From: a virus
Taxonomy: Duplodnaviria > Heunggongvirae > Uroviricota > Caudoviricetes
DNA length: 40,343 nt
IMG/VR virus record: IMGVR_UViG_2718218360_000013
Reading direction: 5' to 3' (one strand)
This document shows, piece by piece, positions 28,640 to 35,705 of the stretch. The notes below the pieces were generated by a model. It was not told where the DNA came from. It ran no database searches and was given only the letters and a program-made list of their open reading frames with translations. A program made the translations under genes and the position numbers. Position 1 is the stretch's first letter; each line of letters begins with the position of its first letter.

Positions 28640-29149
28640 TTAACGGGGAAGTGATTTTTCATACTGCCTGCAAACGGCGTCATACCCCATCAGCGTGCGT
28701 TCGGGCATTCCCATCGCGGCCAGCATTTTGCGGCGGTGCCATCGCTTGAGACGCTCCAGCACATCTGAGGCCAGGGCGGGGTGTTGCTCCAGCCACTGCC
28801 AGTTTGCCACACCTTCGCCGCCGTTTTGCGCGGCCGTCTGCGATTTCACCCAGCGGTTAAGGGCGGTTTCCGCACCATCAGAGATAAAGCCCTGCCGGTG
28901 CATCACCTTCCAGATGGCGCGAATTTTAGCGGTCACCGTACCCGGTTTTAAGGCCCGGTTAACCGGGTTCTGACGCACTTTAAAACCGCGTTTTTTGAAA
29001 ACATCCAGCACGCGGGATAACTCATCCGGTGACATATCCCGGCAGCTGGTTTTGCCGGTGACCGCCAGTAGTACGGATGTGTAGGTTTCATCATCCAGGG
29101 CAAGCTCGCGTTTTGCCACATGAATGGCAGATATCAGTTTCCCTCTCAT
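28640..29149 (-). CDS. gemA: GemA (Mu gp16)-like regulatory protein
   Basis: MRGKLISAIHVAKRELALDDETYTSVLL... matches the conserved N-terminus of Mu gp16-like proteins. Confidence 0.7.
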   Translation of the reverse strand: MRGKLISAIHVAKRELALDDETYTSVLLAVTGKTSCRDMSPDELSRVLDVFKKRGFKVRQNPVNRALKPGTVTAKIRAIWKVMHRQGFISDGAETALNRWVKSQTAAQNGGEGVANWQWLEQHPALASDVLERLKRWHRRKMLAAMGMPERTLMGYDAVCRQYEKSLPR

Positions 29150-29442
29150 GCTGTATCAACACTCCTGCGGATATGATAGGTATTATTTTCCCGATCGAGC
29201 TGAACCCGATACTCCGGAGGAATCACAAAAATATTAAAACCATCATCAGTTTTTATTCTTGAGTAGCATTCCCCCTTATGATATCTGGCCAGTGCATTAA
29301 TCAGAGAAGTCGCAGCCTGCCCAATCAGGTATTTTTTATGAAAAATACTGATAACTTTCCGGCACAGCCATCGTGTAATGACGAATGCACCGAAAAAGGA
29401 TGTGATATATAAATACCAGAACAACTGCGAACTACTGTCCAT
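29146..29442 (-). CDS. Hypothetical membrane protein (98 aa), low-GC cassette
   Basis: N-terminal TM helix LFWYLYITSFFGAFVITRWL; AT-rich codons. Confidence 0.45.
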   Translation of the reverse strand: MDSSSQLFWYLYITSFFGAFVITRWLCRKVISIFHKKYLIGQAATSLINALARYHKGECYSRIKTDDGFNIFVIPPEYRVQLDRENNTYHIRRSVDTA

Positions 29443-29629
29443 TATCTTTCTCCTTATTCAGTCTTCTGCGGCATTCGGCACAGTCATCAGGGCTTTCAAA
29501 TGTATCCGGCTCGCGATTATGAGCCAGATATAACCACCGTCCACATATACTGATATTTTCGCCTGTTTTAAAAAAATGATGCTTCCTGGCCATTAGTGGC
29601 CGCGCCCATCCAGCGGGTAGACTATTCAT
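29432..29629 (-). CDS. Hypothetical small Cys-containing protein (65 aa), low-GC cassette
   Basis: ICGRW ... CAEC spacing suggests a metal-binding knuckle; AT-rich. Confidence 0.4.
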   Translation of the reverse strand: MNSLPAGWARPLMARKHHFFKTGENISICGRWLYLAHNREPDTFESPDDCAECRRRLNKEKDNGQ

Positions 29630-29957
29630 TTGCTTTATCCTCCATGCTGGACAGAATCATATGTATTAATGTCGGGCGTGGAGATATACGCATTTCATTA
29701 AGCGTCTGAAGGGCAGCAACAGCTGCCTGTTTATCGGTGCCTTTGGCAATTTCAGCAAGAGAATGCACAATCCATAATGGGCTTAACGCTACGGCTGAAT
29801 GCAGAATCATGTCATCCATAATAATTTCTGGCATATCCCGTTTGTCACATTCTTTATCCATAAAAGAAACGATTTTTTCTGCATCTTCCGGTTTCATGCC
29901 TCCGGCGATGAGAATTTTACGATATTCATAAGACGATCTTAATTCAATACTCATCAT
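29622..29957 (-). CDS. Hypothetical protein (111 aa), low-GC cassette
   Basis: ORF with overlapping start/stop coupling to neighbours; no recognisable motif. Confidence 0.45.
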   Translation of the reverse strand: MMSIELRSSYEYRKILIAGGMKPEDAEKIVSFMDKECDKRDMPEIIMDDMILHSAVALSPLWIVHSLAEIAKGTDKQAAVAALQTLNEMRISPRPTLIHMILSSMEDKANE

Positions 29958-29969
29958 TCACCTGCCTGT

Positions 29970-30362
29970 TTAATCAGTTTCCAGTGCTTTGCTACGGGCA
30001 ACAGCCTCACACTCAAAAAATACCGACTCCGGCACACGCTCCTTTAATTCACGAACAAGAAAATCATTAACGAGTTCATGACGTCTTATATTTCTTTCCT
30101 TTTCCTCCTGGCGCAATACAGCAAGGCGGTATTCAACAGTCCGGCGTTGTTTCTGAAAGACAGCCAGTGCTTTTCTGGCAGAGTTACGCAATGTATCATC
30201 GCCACAGGGTTCGTATTCAAGCTGAAATTTAATCTCTTCAATGGTTTCTTTTATTTTTGCCAGCAAGCTAAGACAGTCGCTGATTGTCTTCAGTTTTTCA
30301 TTATCAATATAACTTCTCACGCATTCACCTCCCGTCATTCCGGTAAAGCTGAAATATGGCAC
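29970..30362 (-). CDS. Hypothetical coiled-coil protein (130 aa), low-GC cassette
   Basis: Charged helical repeats (EEIKFQLEYE, RLAVLRQEEKERNIRRHEL). Confidence 0.45.
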   Translation of the reverse strand: MPYFSFTGMTGGECVRSYIDNEKLKTISDCLSLLAKIKETIEEIKFQLEYEPCGDDTLRNSARKALAVFQKQRRTVEYRLAVLRQEEKERNIRRHELVNDFLVRELKERVPESVFFECEAVARSKALETD

Positions 30363-30646
30363 CAGTGCGTCACCTGTCCGTCCTCATCTTCAAGGCAGGC
30401 TCCGGTTTCTTCATCAATAAAAAAGCCTTCATACCCCATATGGCCGATGCGCAGTTCCTGTTGGTCACCATACTGAACAATCAGCACGACAGCCTCCATA
30501 TCAGGCGGGAAAGCATCATTCAGTGAATGCCAGGGATAACCGCGCAAATCCCCGAAATAAACACCGGTCAGCGTTCCGCCACAGACCGGCATTCCGACGG
30601 CACACACAAGGGGTTCATCTGATTCAACAAATAATGTCGTTATCAT
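30335..30646 (-). CDS. Hypothetical protein (103 aa)
   Basis: ORF in the early accessory operon. Confidence 0.45.
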   Translation of the reverse strand: MITTLFVESDEPLVCAVGMPVCGGTLTGVYFGDLRGYPWHSLNDAFPPDMEAVVLIVQYGDQQELRIGHMGYEGFFIDEETGACLEDEDGQVTHWCHISALPE

Positions 30647-31194
30647 GGCATTAATTCCCGTAATACAACATCTTCGGCAGTCCGACGACGGTGATAAATA
30701 AAACTCACCGTGCCCTCGGATAATTCAAATTTCTCGCCGATTTCCCTAAAGGTAAGACGCCGTGGTGATTCAGCATCCCGTAATTCACGAATAAGACGAA
30801 CATCATCGTCAGGTATGCGGGTGAAGGGCAGCAACTCTCCGTATTTTTTCATGCTTACGCCAATATATCGCGCCCGATTGTGGACAGAATCCCGGTCTCG
30901 CCCCAGATATTCTCCTATTTGCTTACCGGTCATTGTTCTGGCATTTTTTCGGATAAATTTATCTTCATCAGGTTTAAATCTGAGGCGTTTGCATTTGAGC
31001 AACTCCGGGTAAGTACCGCGTAATAAAACAATCCGGTTATGTACACCCCAGAAACTTCTTTTTATCCTGACAGCAATATCCTTAACCGGGGTGGATGGAT
31101 AAAGCGCAATCAGCAGCGCATCTTCTTCAGGTGTCCATGCGCGAACATGAGCGGGTGCACGGCCTTTTCTCCCCATGGGTTGTAATATCATCAT
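30643..31194 (-). CDS. Putative DNA-binding protein with up to three HTH-like segments
   Basis: WTPEEDALLIALY (Myb/SANT-like), TGKQIGEYLGRDRDSVHNRARYIG, LTFREIGEKFELSEGTVSFIYHRR. Confidence 0.5.
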   Translation of the reverse strand: MMILQPMGRKGRAPAHVRAWTPEEDALLIALYPSTPVKDIAVRIKRSFWGVHNRIVLLRGTYPELLKCKRLRFKPDEDKFIRKNARTMTGKQIGEYLGRDRDSVHNRARYIGVSMKKYGELLPFTRIPDDDVRLIRELRDAESPRRLTFREIGEKFELSEGTVSFIYHRRRTAEDVVLRELMP

Positions 31195-31197
31195 GCA

Positions 31198-31713
31198 TCA
31201 CCCCCTGACTCGCTTTTCAGCAGCATAAAACTCATCAGACAGAATTTCGGTCATTTTCTGATTTGCGGGTTTTACGCCGCACTCAAGGTAAATCACATCG
31301 TCAACGCAGAACCACTTCACAGGGCCAAACATGATTGCCGAGAAATCAATACCCAGCCAGAACAACAGTGCATCGGTTCTGGCATACGTGACGGGCGAAT
31401 ATTCACGCCACAGACTGTTAAGTTCGTCAGAGGCAACGCGCAGGGCTTTGGGAATACGTGATGTGCGCGGTGTGCAGCTCCAGCCATTCGACGCAGTCGG
31501 TTTTCGCCATAAGTCGCGATGAAAAGGATATTTGTCATCCATAAAGCGCAGCCCTTTAAAACAAAAGCCACTGATACCGGATACAAATACCGACCGGCAC
31601 GCAACATTCAGCACGGCCTCAAGGCGTTTTGCCTCATCCTTAACTTTCTGGCAGTCCTGCTGATATTTTTGCCACGCGGCCAGCGCGGAAGGGTTTGATG
31701 TTTTAAAGAACAT
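31198..31713 (-). CDS. Hypothetical protein (171 aa)
   Basis: ORF in the early accessory operon. Confidence 0.45.
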   Translation of the reverse strand: MFFKTSNPSALAAWQKYQQDCQKVKDEAKRLEAVLNVACRSVFVSGISGFCFKGLRFMDDKYPFHRDLWRKPTASNGWSCTPRTSRIPKALRVASDELNSLWREYSPVTYARTDALLFWLGIDFSAIMFGPVKWFCVDDVIYLECGVKPANQKMTEILSDEFYAAEKRVRG

Positions 31714-32246
31714 TACGCCACCTCCGCAGATATCCCGGCAGGCGCGGCCGTCCGGTCAACAATCAGGTAACGCAGAACGCGCGAGGTGATATTCCAGCCG
31801 CTTAAACCGCAGATAATGACACCCAGGCGTATGTCGATATACGCCATCACAAACTGGGGCACGCCTTCTTTCATGGCCTGCTCATCAACTTCAGCCACCA
31901 CATAAACGGTTTCACAGGTCAGAACGCCCTGAGCAAATTCCCACGCCATTGACGGAATATCATGCCCCTCAATCCACGGCAGGGATTTTCTGAAGCTGCA
32001 CCACTGAACATCATCAGCCGCACCTTCCTGGCTGCATTTGCGACGAACCGGCTGCACCGGGCGGGGACGCGGAATATCATAAAAACCGTTACATTCCGTC
32101 AGCACCCCGGCATCGACCGCATCACGCAGAAAATAAACCATCGAGGATGGCGGCATATTCATTTTTTCAGCCAGAATGCCGCAGGTCAGACGCCCGTAAA
32201 TACTCAGCCAGTTTTTAACCCCTTCAAGCACTTTTGCACCAATCAT
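31713..32246 (-). CDS. Hypothetical protein (177 aa) with possible N-terminal winged-helix
   Basis: ORF; LSIYGRLTCGILAEKMNMPPSSMVYFLRDAVDAGVL. Confidence 0.45.
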   Translation of the reverse strand: MIGAKVLEGVKNWLSIYGRLTCGILAEKMNMPPSSMVYFLRDAVDAGVLTECNGFYDIPRPRPVQPVRRKCSQEGAADDVQWCSFRKSLPWIEGHDIPSMAWEFAQGVLTCETVYVVAEVDEQAMKEGVPQFVMAYIDIRLGVIICGLSGWNITSRVLRYLIVDRTAAPAGISAEVA

Positions 32247-32249
32247 GAA

Positions 32250-32792
32250 TTATTCCTCCGTCAGCGCCACATATTCAGAATGTTTAATCTCCTGGCATTC
32301 TTCAGGAATACCCCCTTTTATTTCCCTGCCATAAGCGCCTACTTTAAACACCACGCACAGGGCATCACGGGAGAGCGACGGGGTCCACCAGGAGTCCATG
32401 TTAAACATGGAGGGGATTCTCATTACCCCCAGCTTTTCACAGAGCCAGACAAGGAAATCAGGACGCTTTCTTAACTCGCGTTCAGCGGCTTCAATCATTG
32501 CGGCAATCGCCGGTCCTTCAGGGCATGACTCATCAGGTCTGGCAATAAAGCACGGTCCGTCCCCGATAAAAGCCACATCATCGCGCTTACGCCAGCCCGC
32601 AGGCAGAGCACCAGAAAAATAAAACTCACTGATTACGTCCATGGCAAACGGCTTTAAGCGCAATCCGGCAGCGCCTGTATTTTTCAGTAATGCCCGAAGA
32701 ATACTGTTGCGTAGCGGTAAAACAGTCTGTTGATATTTGGTGAAATATTTATTTGTCTGCACACGGTCTAATTTGAAATAAAAATATGCCAT
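32250..32792 (-). CDS. Hypothetical protein (180 aa)
   Basis: ORF immediately downstream of gam. Confidence 0.45.
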   Translation of the reverse strand: MAYFYFKLDRVQTNKYFTKYQQTVLPLRNSILRALLKNTGAAGLRLKPFAMDVISEFYFSGALPAGWRKRDDVAFIGDGPCFIARPDESCPEGPAIAAMIEAAERELRKRPDFLVWLCEKLGVMRIPSMFNMDSWWTPSLSRDALCVVFKVGAYGREIKGGIPEECQEIKHSEYVALTEE

Positions 32793-32889
32793 ATATCCTG
32801 TTCCTTATTTTCAGTTTACAGGCGCAGGCAGTCCCCTGACGCGAGCGCCATACTTAAAACGATGTGATATTTAAAGATTTAATGCGGTG

Positions 32890-33420
32890 TTATTTATTCA
32901 GTCCGGCGTCCTGTTCAAAAGGCTCGACATAAAAACTTTCAGCGCCTTTATTCACCTTAATACCGGCAATGCCTTTCACTGCATCCGGCTCCGCTAGGAC
33001 CGCTTCCTTGTTCACTTCCTCTTTCGTGCGGATGAATCGCTCAAGCCCCATACGGCGCAGCATTTCAATCACACCTTCCACATCACGGCTGACGCTGCAT
33101 GATGGATTTCCCAGCCGCCATGACACTGTTCCGGTGGTCAGATTGGCTGTTTTGGTTTTGCCGCCGTTCGTCAGCTCATCGCGGTTGGTTTTGCACCAGT
33201 CCTGAATCCCCTTAAAAAGCACTTTGATTTCTTTTTTAAGGTTTTCAATCTGCGGCGTATAACGGGCGGTGATTTCTGCCACTTCATCATTCATCGCCGT
33301 TTCCAGCCGTAGCGCCTCTCGCTGAATATCGCCCAGGGTACGGATATCGCGGCTGACTTCTTCGCGGGTCTGCGGTGCAGCCTCGGCTGCGGCCTTTAAT
33401 TTTGTAACACGTTTAGCCAT
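32890..33420 (-). CDS. gam: Gam host-nuclease inhibitor (Ku-like DNA end-binding protein)
   Basis: RLETAMNDEVAEITARY...ANRDELTNGGKTKTANLTTGTVSWR...RFIRTKEEVNKEAVLAEP closely parallels Mu Gam. Confidence 0.85.
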   Translation of the reverse strand: MAKRVTKLKAAAEAAPQTREEVSRDIRTLGDIQREALRLETAMNDEVAEITARYTPQIENLKKEIKVLFKGIQDWCKTNRDELTNGGKTKTANLTTGTVSWRLGNPSCSVSRDVEGVIEMLRRMGLERFIRTKEEVNKEAVLAEPDAVKGIAGIKVNKGAESFYVEPFEQDAGLNK

Positions 33421-34548: not shown

Positions 34549-34776
34549 TTAGCTGACTTGTTTCGCACCAACAGAACGGCATATTCCGCTGTAAACGTCT
34601 GTCGCACCTTCGCGATCAAGTCCGGCAGATATCACCATTCGTGTGCGGTCATTAAATTCAAAAAGTAAATCGCCACATTCTTTATTTTCGGCCAGTGAAA
34701 TCACCTTCACGTTATCGAAATTAACCAGGTAAAAGCGTCCGTAAATATCAGGAATATTAAATACCGCCATAATCAC
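34549..34776 (-). CDS. Hypothetical early protein at the position of Mu kil (75 aa)
   Basis: Immediately downstream of the B-like gene with ATGA overlap. Confidence 0.4.
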   Translation of the reverse strand: MIMAVFNIPDIYGRFYLVNFDNVKVISLAENKECGDLLFEFNDRTRMVISAGLDREGATDVYSGICRSVGAKQVS

Positions 34777-35705
34777 ACCTGTGAGAGTAATTCAGGGTTG
34801 GTATAAACCTCTTTAAAGGCCGCATTAATATGTTTTTCTGTCAGCGCCGCGCCTTCACCGCTGGCGGTGAGCCACGCCTGGTTAAGCGTATGTGTCAGAA
34901 CGCGTAACGCTCCCGGCTTTTCAGCGATAGCCTGCATGACGGCCAGCTCGGCCTCACCACTGATCCCCCACGCCCTGGCAATGGCCAGCACATCCGCCTT
35001 TTTGGCCTTGCGAAGTTGTTTTGTACGGGCAAGACGGCTGAACAGGCGCGATAAATCATCAAAGGCGCGGCGTCCACCTTTAAACAATCCGCGCGGGTTA
35101 CCAATAAGCACCATCCCGATCCCCGTGGCGTCCTGAATTGCCCGGAGTTGCTCCAGACCGTCAATACCCAGATGATCCGCCTCATCCACAATCACCAGTC
35201 CACGCGTTCCCATCAGGCGACGGCGGATGGCGCGGGATAATGCCCCTTTGTTCGCGCGGGTGTAATCAATCCCCAGCGCATCGGCCAGCTCCAGCAGACA
35301 CTCCGTGACGCTGGAGTGCGCGGGTGACAGGGTGATCATCCAGGTGTTTGGTTGCTCCTGGCAGTAATTACGGGCAGTGGCCGTTTTACCCACACCCGGT
35401 ACGCCCACAATAACGTTAATACAGCCCATCAGACGAACCGCCTGAAACAGTGCGCGCAGCTCCTGGACTGTCTGCGTTTCCACAAACTGCGGCGGTTCCG
35501 GCAGTGCGCTTTGTTTATTCCAGTTTTCATACCAGGAACGCAGGGAAGCAGCCACAGCGGCGTTATCGCCTTTATATTTCCCCTTGCGGAAAGCCGATAA
35601 TGTGCCGTCGGAAATTCCCGCCTCTCTGGCGATGGCATACTGCGTCAGTACGCCGCCATCAATAAGTTCATCAATGGTCTTGATTACATCGTTAATATCA
35701 GTCAT
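34773..35705 (-). CDS. MuB-like transposition ATPase
   Basis: Walker A GVPGVGKT and Walker B LVIVDEADHL; N-terminal HTH; directly after the transposase gene. Confidence 0.9.
   Translation of the reverse strand: MTDINDVIKTIDELIDGGVLTQYAIAREAGISDGTLSAFRKGKYKGDNAAVAASLRSWYENWNKQSALPEPPQFVETQTVQELRALFQAVRLMGCINVIVGVPGVGKTATARNYCQEQPNTWMITLSPAHSSVTECLLELADALGIDYTRANKGALSRAIRRRLMGTRGLVIVDEADHLGIDGLEQLRAIQDATGIGMVLIGNPRGLFKGGRRAFDDLSRLFSRLARTKQLRKAKKADVLAIARAWGISGEAELAVMQAIAEKPGALRVLTHTLNQAWLTASGEGAALTEKHINAAFKEVYTNPELLSQV

Follow-up and report, generated by a model that had tools for sequence, protein, structure and literature searches.

The semi-essential (SE) early region of phage Mu has been known for decades. 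It is dispensable and comprises 14 ORFs, most of them without an assigned function, and host-lethal functions have also been ascribed to it (PMC3325207); furthermore, the arm and cim phenotypes have been attributed to it, and the searchable sources do not tie them to particular ORFs (PMC4553209). Within Mu, gp11 lies between gam and gp12, and the start of gp12, located right after gp11, overlaps the gp11 stop. Phage SfMu carries an additional gene, ORF11, in the slot behind gam. With regard to gam itself, Mu-type Gam proteins were described as licensing targeting by the Gabija system (PMC12407980).

Here, we analyzed a stretch of 40,343 nucleotides (the window) from a Caudoviricetes virus, recorded in IMG/VR as IMGVR_UViG_2718218360_000013, and in particular three genes located between gam and gemA (Table 1). 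The initial annotation had reported three consecutive ORFs downstream of gam, and their positions, all on the minus strand, proved to be exact. Gam encoded in the window was 57% identical to Mu Gam. The RefSeq annotation contains the same three CDS, a Shine-Dalgarno sequence precedes each of them, and they are tightly spaced, with 3 nt between ORF1 and ORF2, an overlap of 1 nt (TAATG) between ORF2 and ORF3, and 3 nt between the ORF3 stop and the start of the following gene. When natural alleles were compared, median dN/dS values were 0.34 for ORF1, 0.16 for ORF2 and 0.20 for ORF3 (gam, 0.10; MuB, 0.05), i.e., purifying selection acts on each of the three genes. Moreover, the 1.6-kb block was present in 213 of 5426 complete Escherichia coli genomes (about 4%; at least 90% identity over at least 80% of the block length). 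Based on the Shine-Dalgarno sequences and spacing, the RefSeq calls, the dN/dS values and this distribution, the three ORFs are genuine genes from the early region of a Mu-like prophage and not chance ORFs. The gene that follows ORF3 showed matches to Sigma70_r4, HTH_AsnC and MarR_2, all of them sub-threshold, and is the first of a lower-GC cassette whose gene content forms a mosaic of presence and absence across related prophages.

Table 1. Position of the three genes, their neighbours and associated elements in the window.
Feature	Position	Strand	Description
gam	32890-33420	minus	Mu Gam/Ku-like DNA-end-binding protein; upstream boundary of the block; Pfam Phage_Mu_Gam 1.5e-41, phrog_491 3.5e-70
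Hairpin GGCGC...GCGCC	32821-32849	minus	Immediately 3' of gam and directly followed by the variable slot
ORF1	32250-32792	minus	180 aa; divergent DUF5420/phrog_2260 protein and putative remote paralogue of gp12, in the gam-gp11 slot
Shine-Dalgarno sequence GGAGGA of ORF2	32254-32259	minus	Inside the last ORF1 codons (T-E-E); reads ACGGAGGAATAATTCATG
ORF2	31713-32246	minus	177 aa; Mu gp11 orthologue
Winged-helix-like head (predicted)	32073-32246	minus	ORF2 residues 1-58; most conserved part of the family
Gp11_C domain, small alpha/beta	31746-31979	minus	ORF2 residues 90-167; Pfam PF25754 8e-40
ORF3	31198-31713	minus	171 aa; Mu gp12 orthologue (PF26885, phrog_2314)
Gene after ORF3	30643-31194	minus	183 aa; multiple HTH-like stretches; phrog_323 6.3e-58
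gemA	28640-29149		Pfam GemA 2e-30

The product of ORF2 was 66.7% identical to Mu gp11 (Mup11, NP_050615) over 100% of its length (177 vs 176 aa), and that of ORF3 was 54.8% identical to Mu gp12 (Mup12, NP_050616; also 176 aa) over 98% of its length and about 55% identical to gp12 of phage D108. Both genes lie in the same place as in Mu, and no structural difference was found between either protein and its Mu counterpart; the matching lengths and positions contradict the earlier impression that the ORFs are larger than the small early proteins of Mu. ORF2 passed the PF25754 (Gp11_C) profile with 135.5 bits (cutoff 27) across profile positions 1-78 of 78 and belongs to phrog_1949; 222 homologues were found, and PF25754 was present on all 120 of those listed. 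ORF3 matched phrog_2314 (1.4e-85, residues 1-170) and is named 'Mu-Gp12 family protein' in RefSeq. PF26885 was recorded, as a precomputed assignment, on P0015, the cluster representative with 98% identity to ORF3, and likewise on each of the 46 homologues. Overall, we place high confidence in the assignment of ORF2 and ORF3 as orthologues of Mu gp11 and gp12 and of ORF1 as a protein of the DUF5420 type.

A possible N-terminal winged helix had been noticed in one of the ORFs; this turned out to be ORF2, in which the AlphaFold2 model gives it tentative support at the fold level. The head, nearly invariant within the family, has as its closest structural neighbours, in the predicted model, regulators of the Lrp/AsnC, MarR and ArsR types, and it is followed by a variable linker (residues 63-80). 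Confidence of the model was only moderate (pLDDT 61), with a poorly modelled wing and linker, and reached 74-87 over most of the Gp11_C domain, predicted as one helix and four strands. Its two-domain layout of head, linker and small alpha/beta domain is similar to that of Lrp/AsnC proteins; however, the RAM fold of the latter follows the order beta-alpha-beta-beta-alpha-beta, while that predicted for the gp11 C-domain is alpha-beta-alpha-beta-beta-beta. Furthermore, gp11 lacks a family match at the sequence level, both to these winged-helix regulators and to Z-alpha domains, and no HTH family was found in Pfam at E values up to 1. Since gp11 is also acidic (pI 5.2), the modelled head could be a protein-binding winged helix.

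The gp12 family extends to phages of Klebsiella, Pseudomonas, Acinetobacter and Vibrio at 26-34% identity, and these phages do not carry gp11; small ORFs beside their gp12-like genes were considered as gp11 relatives and discarded (best E, 0.2). The distant gp12-like genes are situated in early regions, near genes for CI-type repressors, DUF3164, Rad52, Bet, DNA ligase and GemA. The AlphaFold2 model of gp12 reached a pLDDT of 72, with low confidence in the middle third.

Regarding ORF1, it matched phrog_2260 at 1.1e-74 and was 40% identical, over 99% of its length, to SfMu ORF11 (YP_009152197), its known counterpart (PMC4406740), which RefSeq names 'DUF5420 family protein'. ORF1 has the same position behind gam as SfMu ORF11 and shares the N-terminal YFK and an invariant C-terminus, IKHSE[FY][IV]A[LI]TEE, but has PDESCPEGP at the place where canonical DUF5420 members carry PDRRYKEGK. 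When compared directly with the Pfam profile of DUF5420 (PF17457; gathering threshold, 26 bits), ORF1 gave no match at E values up to 1, and its closest relatives scored 13-15 bits. A profile built from ORF1 retrieved a series of proteins (P0185-P0202) at 1e-9 to 1e-4; among the members scanned, P0185, P0187, P0190 and P0202 matched PF17457 at 4.7e-10 to 5.6e-23, with only weak matches for P0196 and P0199. Likewise, phrog_2260 spans both the ORF1 group and the group that matches PF17457, and EIK[HK]SE[FY][IV]A[LI]TEE is the C-terminal motif common to ORF1 and DUF5420 members. By this transitive profile search and these common motifs, ORF1 is classified as a divergent member of DUF5420. The DUF5420/phrog_2260 group is rare: 1.84 billion proteins contained 26 of its cluster representatives, and 185,579 species genomes contained three loci.

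We also compared ORF1 with the gp12 family. Neither BLASTP nor hhalign with shallow alignments (probability 0.13%) gave a significant match between ORF1 and ORF3, and the relationship became visible only with broadened alignments. With these, reciprocal hhalign comparisons yielded probabilities of 87.7% and 92.9% (E values of 3.4e-6 and 3.7e-7) over 152-154 collinear columns, and controls with the gp11 profile and with reversed profiles remained at 0.2-0.3%. These profile alignments indicate that ORF1 and gp12 are remote homologues, for which we propose a gp12/DUF5420 superfamily.

In 69 IMG/VR loci, together with Mu and SfMu, gp11 and gp12 were adjacent wherever the locus reached far enough for both genes, a statement that covers related Mu-type (enterobacterial) loci; their upstream neighbour was Gam, or DUF3164 in its place. 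The gam-gp11 slot, by contrast, varied in related prophages: it was empty, held two genes in tandem or contained a single DUF5420 gene, of which at least four divergent types occur. Even prophages with gam and gp11 at least 96% identical differed in this respect, with an empty slot, the ORF1 type or a 196-aa type that is only 23% identical to ORF1. In Mu, a vestige of the slot gene is retained as ITEE-stop (ATT ACT GAG GAA TAA AAC ATG). From these sequence comparisons, the slot was probably occupied ancestrally and then repeatedly deleted or swapped, and ORF1 appears to be a distant gp12 copy that Mu has lost, keeping its last codons.

From gam through ORF1 and ORF2 to ORF3, the genes are separated neither by a promoter-like nor by a terminator-like site. 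Inside ORF2 there is one weak match to a terminator, a number within the expectation from shuffled sequences, and the first strong terminator is located on the 3' side of gemA. The placement of the ORF2 Shine-Dalgarno sequence within the last codons of ORF1 was also observed in SfMu, in Citrobacter and in a further locus (L014). Judged by this arrangement, ORF1, ORF2 and ORF3 are translationally coupled and form part of the early (Pe) operon. The sequence of the hairpin behind gam is kept in Mu, in SfMu and in all slot types, and RNAalifold predicted 10 pairs at -12 kcal/mol; with neither compensatory changes nor a T-run, we do not interpret it as structured RNA or as a terminator.

None of the three proteins matched a named functional family in Pfam and NCBIfam, or a defence system in PADLOC at E values up to 0.1. 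In searches of PDB sequences, for which both single sequences and profiles served as queries, no match fell below an E value of 0.38, and Foldseek against BFVD returned only uncharacterised phage proteins. Both PHROG families are labelled 'unknown function', and no functional data were found in the searchable literature for gp11, gp12, DUF5420, the corresponding PF numbers or the arm and cim phenotypes. Hence, the initial view that the ORFs carry no assignable motif stands with respect to a functional family and falls with respect to family membership, given Gp11_C in ORF2, Mu-Gp12 in ORF3 and the phrog_2260 counterpart of SfMu ORF11 in ORF1; none of the Mu early genes to which homology was uncovered has itself been assigned a function. 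Two specific assignments were considered as well and rejected. A PD-(D/E)XK nuclease had been suggested for gp12/DUF5420 by the EIK motif, but the residues of this motif vary within the superfamily, and the combination of conserved D...(D/E)xK catalytic residues on a beta-hairpin with the nuclease fold was not seen; acidic DNA-mimic anti-restriction proteins do not agree with the pI values of 7.6, 5.2 and 9.0 for ORF1, ORF2 and ORF3, respectively.

The best explanation overall, which we favour tentatively and at just under even confidence, is that gp11, gp12 and its DUF5420 paralogue form a non-enzymatic module of the early operon, accessory or for host takeover. This dispensable module would be made within minutes of induction along with Gam. 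The winged-helix head of gp11 would bind nucleic acid or a partner protein, next to its small alpha/beta C-terminal domain, and gp12 and the DUF5420 paralogue, with a predicted alpha/beta fold, would act by binding and not by catalysis, because no PDB match and no conserved catalytic residues were found. Their targets may be found in phage or host DNA transactions, either in the handling of DNA ends and of intermediates of transposition or among the repair and immune factors of the host; such a Gam-linked role in DNA transactions is possible, if on balance doubtful. We infer the joint action of the three proteins, their binding targets and any link to Gam. Their location next to gam may be no more than a matter of operon order. 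As for ORF1, the variability of its slot and its higher dN/dS suit a role in an arms race at least as well as one in DNA transactions.

Such an arms race would be the setting if the proteins, primarily ORF1 and perhaps gp11 and gp12 as well, were counter-defence factors that inhibit host immunity (for example, host systems triggered when Gam blocks RecBCD) and the slot were a diversifying anti-defence hotspot. This reading, which we regard as rather unlikely, would account for the presence/absence and allele replacement of the slot gene between gam and gp11 genes conserved at 96% or more, for the tandem copies and the number of divergent DUF5420 types (at least four) and for an ORF1 dN/dS that is the maximum of the neighbourhood; the genes are also early, dispensable and free of enzyme motifs, and a countermeasure linked to Gam would make sense given that Gam licenses Gabija targeting (PMC12407980). 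However, typical anti-defence cargo differs from gp11 and gp12, which belong to the constant core and have low dN/dS; by their pI values, the proteins do not qualify as acidic DNA mimics, they resemble no named family, and the slot gene is absent from Mu and many STEC prophages. An extended version, in which the gp12/DUF5420 proteins would constitute a new counter-defence superfamily linked to Gam and gp11 and gp12 the fixed core of the same machinery, seems quite improbable to us. If it were true, the slot after gam (or DUF3164) would be a diversifying hotspot whose alleles neutralise different host systems, with sensors of RecBCD blockade or of protected DNA ends (Gabija-, retron- and Old-type guards) as their targets.

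It is also improbable that gp11 is a sequence-specific transcription regulator, for instance of the historically mapped 'control of immunity' type of SE function, with gp12 and ORF1 as co-factors. The nearly invariant head with its modelled resemblance to Lrp/AsnC, MarR and ArsR proteins, the Lrp/AsnC-like layout and the arm and cim phenotypes credited to the SE region (PMC4553209) would fit such a regulator; against it stand the lack of an HTH family in Pfam at E up to 1, the acidity of gp11, the poorly modelled wing and linker and the lack of an identified candidate operator. Finally, prophage-expressed 'morons' that guard the lysogen through superinfection exclusion or anti-phage defence would be in line with a variable slot and with the accessory cargo common in prophages. 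This alternative is disfavoured as extremely improbable: the genes lie inside a repressor-controlled early lytic operon with no promoter-like site upstream of ORF1, ORF2 or ORF3, the only terminator-like match of the block is the weak one in ORF2, no more than in shuffled sequence, and the genes are translationally coupled to their neighbours and lack PADLOC matches.

The protein families themselves were already known and the block is an ordinary one, ORF1 included, as SfMu ORF11 and phrog_2260 precede it. The kinship between ORF1 and gp12, the variation of the slot, the ITEE-stop vestige in Mu and the purifying selection on all three genes are added here. The three genes belong to the functionally unexplained set of ORFs of the Mu SE region, and their carriers include Shiga-toxin-producing E. 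coli strains of serogroups O26, O111, O121 and O157. The present analysis reduces three unknowns to two kinds of protein, gp11 and the gp12/DUF5420 superfamily that we propose. Furthermore, the polymorphic slot next to gam provides natural knock-outs and allele swaps, i.e., ready isogenic comparisons, which serve the question of whether these genes work in favour of Mu replication and integration or against the immunity of the host.

The window holds a near-complete Mu-like prophage with its early operon on the minus strand, in which the block delimited in the initial annotation is flanked by gam (Phage_Mu_Gam, 1.5e-41) and gemA (GemA, 2e-30). The three ORFs downstream of gam matched their earlier description exactly in position, size and strand, and RefSeq carries the identical three CDS. 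Ribosome-binding sites were strong and of the GGAGG type for ORF2 and ORF3, and AAGGAA for ORF1; only 3 nt separate the ORF1 stop from the ORF2 start, the ORF3 start overlaps the ORF2 stop (TAATG), and the gap from the ORF3 stop to the following gene is again 3 nt. Median pairwise dN/dS values among natural alleles were 0.34, 0.16 and 0.20 for ORF1, ORF2 and ORF3, respectively, compared with 0.10 (gam) and 0.05 (MuB). All three ORFs are real genes. No promoter-like site was found upstream of any of them, the only terminator-like match within the block was weak and lay inside ORF2 (the regional number being at shuffled-sequence level), and the first strong terminator comes after gemA; therefore, ORF1–ORF3 belong to a long early transcript. 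Of 5426 complete E. coli genomes, 213 carry the 1.6-kb block (at least 90% identity, at least 80% of length); O111:H8 and other E. coli genomes from humans and cattle match it at 100% identity. In LC727881.1 and LC727895.1, this Mu-like element (three ORFs 95–96% identical) is annotated as an insertion within Stx2c- and Stx1a-converting phage genomes.

Coordinates of features in the window and in related loci
Feature	Sequence	Coordinates	Strand	Product
Mom-family gene	window	1-738
679-aa protein gene	window	2120-4159	minus	679 aa
Gin-type invertase	window	4259-4819
gemA	window	28640-29149
Lower-GC block	window	29146-31194	minus
ORF3	window	31198-31713	minus	171 aa
ORF2	window	31713-32246	minus	177 aa
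ORF1	window	32250-32792	minus	180 aa
Post-gam hairpin	window	32821-32849	minus
gam	window	32890-33420
MuB	window	34773-35705
MuA transposase	window	35777-37867
Ner-like gene	window	37869-38117
Truncated host ureC	window	39129-40343	minus	404 aa
I-T-E-E-stop	Mu (L001, NC_000929)	about 6406-6426
14-codon remnant	STEC-type phage (L007)	about 1076-1126
DUF3164 at Gam position (6e-79)	Salmonella- and Citrobacter-type Mu-like prophages (L045, L047, L048, L064, L065, L067, L069)
DUF3164 at Gam position (6e-79)	Salmonella/Citrobacter-type Mu-like prophage (L110)	about 4270-4908
DUF3164 at Gam position (6e-79)	Pseudomonas phage VW-6B (L074)	2472-3101
154-aa protein gene	Pseudomonas phage VW-6B (L074)	4006-4470		154 aa
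DUF5420 gene	Candidatus Izemoplasma MAG (L111)	4998-5567
DUF5420 gene	Desulfobotulus MAG (L112)	about 4725-5312
Three-ORF block	LC727881.1	67754-69348
Three-ORF block	LC727895.1	13123-14186

Other features of the prophage were also recorded. At its repressor-side end, it adjoins a fragment of the urease alpha-subunit gene ureC (junction near 39144/39145; phage end 5'-TGTAACCAGGTGAATC), whose Amidohydro_1 match ends at profile position 280 of 345; given this truncation, the Mu-like element appears to be inserted in ureC. The lower-GC block downstream of ORF3 (43–47% GC) begins with a gene for a 183-aa protein of phrog_323 with multiple HTH-like stretches, and goes on with five small ORFs whose presence is mosaic among prophages otherwise more than 90% identical. 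Beside the Gin invertase, the 679-aa protein has both a sialate O-acetylesterase-like (SASA) domain and DUF6645, and may be a receptor-modifying tail-fibre protein.

Sequence comparison identified ORF2 as the orthologue of Mu gp11 (66.7% identity over 100% of length), with the Pfam "Phage Mu Gp11 C-terminal domain" (PF25754, 8e-40), and ORF3 as that of gp12 (about 55% identity to the Mu and D108 proteins over 98–99% of length). The latter falls in phrog_2314 (1.4e-85), is currently named "Mu-Gp12 family protein" in RefSeq, and shares the precomputed PF26885 with all its homologues. In phage Mu, the order is gam, gp11, gp12; since gp11 and gp12 have 176 aa each, the premise that the ORFs exceed Mu's own early proteins in size was mistaken.

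The AlphaFold2 model of gp11 (pLDDT 61) comprised a three-helix head (residues 4–45), a disordered, proline- and arginine-rich linker (50–88) and a better defined C-domain of one helix and four strands (pLDDT 74–87 over most of the domain). Within the family, conservation is highest in the head, where residues 18–62 are nearly invariant among 71 sequences. The winged helix previously considered possible in one of the ORFs was tentatively supported here at the level of the predicted fold. At the sequence level, no HTH family was detected in gp11, an acidic protein (pI 5.2). In VW-6B, the 154-aa protein encoded directly downstream of the gp12-like gene has an N-terminus resembling a winged helix by eye and could be a gp11 analogue in swapped order; the gp11 HMM did not detect it (E 1.3). 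As for gp12, its AlphaFold2 model (pLDDT 72, pTM 0.64) showed an N-terminal strand, a long helix (8–35) and a poorly defined middle third, followed by three helices, a three-stranded sheet and a C-terminal helix. Distant gp12-like genes (29–34% identity) occur in other temperate phages, again in early regions, where they adjoin CI-type repressors (Peptidase_S24 in six and HTH_3 in seven neighbouring proteins, pooled over nine non-redundant loci) and lie near DUF3164, DUF2303, Rad52, Bet, DNA ligase or GemA.

Neither Mu nor D108 carries a counterpart of ORF1. Its match in SfMu is ORF11 (40% identity over 99% of length), which occupies the same position and was given as unique to SfMu (PMC4406740). 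ORF1 itself falls short of the Pfam DUF5420 model; it belongs to phrog_2260 (1.1e-74), and an exhaustive search with its profile retrieved only 26 cluster representatives in 1.84 billion proteins, the more distant of which match DUF5420 (down to 5.6e-23). ORF1 therefore belongs to a small DUF5420 clade, as a divergent member. At shallow alignment depth, ORF1 and ORF3 showed no significant similarity. Once the ORF1 family had been widened to 27 diverse sequences and the gp12 family extended with homologues from Klebsiella, Pseudomonas, Acinetobacter and Vibrio phages, reciprocal hhalign comparisons gave probabilities of 87.7% and 92.9% (E 3.4e-6 and 3.7e-7) along 152–154 collinear columns, nearly the whole of both proteins, while the controls (gp11 profile, reversed profiles) stayed at 0.2–0.3%. 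ORF1 and ORF3 are, on this evidence, remotely homologous. Both families have in common an N-terminal [YF][YF]K strand, a central LG motif, a beta-hairpin and a C-terminal E-I-x-x-[SD]-E-[FY]-x-A helix. The EIK motif was also checked as a possible PD-(D/E)XK signature; this was rejected, as no catalytic residue is conserved throughout the superfamily. DUF5420 is otherwise very rare (3 loci in 185,579 species genomes); the proteins of the Izemoplasma and Desulfobotulus MAGs, with a EIKKSEFIAITEE C-terminus, come from very distant bacteria, where their genes lie in phage-like regions that are not of the Mu kind; one of these genes is 3.5 kb from a putative ATP-dependent DNA ligase ORF (KxDG by eye).

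Across 69 IMG/VR loci, Mu and SfMu, gp11 and gp12 were adjacent wherever the locus was long enough for both, and the gam-to-gp11 interval, a slot occupied by ORF1 in the window, was polymorphic. It is empty in Mu-type phages (102 nt) and in some STEC-type phages (149 nt), or holds the ORF1 type (180 aa), the SfMu type (184 aa), a Salmonella/Citrobacter type, two tandem genes, or a 196-aa type sharing just 23% identity with ORF1, found in prophages with gam and gp11 at least 96% identical to those of the window. Apart from one frameshifted copy, all DUF5420 slot proteins end in IKHSE[FY][IV]A[LI]TEE or a near variant, and their TEE codons constitute the gp11 ribosome-binding site GGAGGA. In Mu, an in-frame I-T-E-E-stop identical to this C-terminus immediately precedes the gp11 ATG, and the STEC-type empty slot retains the 14-codon remnant MKYVYIVINNVVGK-stop. 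The empty states are deletion scars; the slot gene is therefore probably ancestral, and was lost in Mu. Directly 3' of gam, a GGCGC...GCGCC hairpin of 10 predicted pairs, with neither compensatory changes nor a T-run, is kept in Mu, SfMu and all slot types. In the Gam-less types (Salmonella, Citrobacter, VW-6B and Klebsiella ST405-OXA48phi1.1), a DUF3164 protein takes the place of Gam; in the Salmonella and Citrobacter types and in VW-6B, its gene immediately precedes the DUF5420/gp11/gp12 genes or a gp12-like gene.

In agreement with the initial annotation, neither Pfam, NCBIfam, PHROGs, PADLOC and PDB nor the searchable literature assigns a function to the three ORFs. The semi-essential early region of Mu is deletable and specifies host-lethal functions, and most of its 14 ORFs lack an assigned phenotype or function (PMC3325207). 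The ORF1, gp11 and gp12 genes are co-translated, and our tentative preference is for a dispensable early accessory module acting by binding, in which the gp11 head, the gp11 C-domain and a gp12-type partner would work alongside Gam on DNA ends, transposition intermediates or host repair factors.

Counter-defence, the main rival to this accessory module, would suit ORF1 especially: it draws on the presence/absence pattern and allele replacement in the slot, on the higher dN/dS of ORF1 and on the sensitization of phages to Gabija by Mu-type Gam proteins (PMC12407980), and we rate it only slightly below that module. A regulatory role of gp11 is improbable, and less likely than either the accessory module or counter-defence. 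A lysogen-protecting moron, also less likely than those two, is very improbable, the missing promoter and the translational coupling of the genes speaking against it.

Taken together, the finding is real but ordinary: ORF2 and ORF3 have uncharacterised Mu genes as orthologues and occupy the textbook position, and the ORF1 family, without assigned function, was already known, being annotated in SfMu and hundreds of E. coli genomes. The relationships uncovered in this analysis are the ORF1–gp12 homology, the slot polymorphism, the empty-slot scars and the replacement of Gam by DUF3164. Its useful by-products are the gp12–DUF5420 homology, a polymorphic slot with scars in Mu, and tentative support from the predicted fold for a winged helix in gp11.
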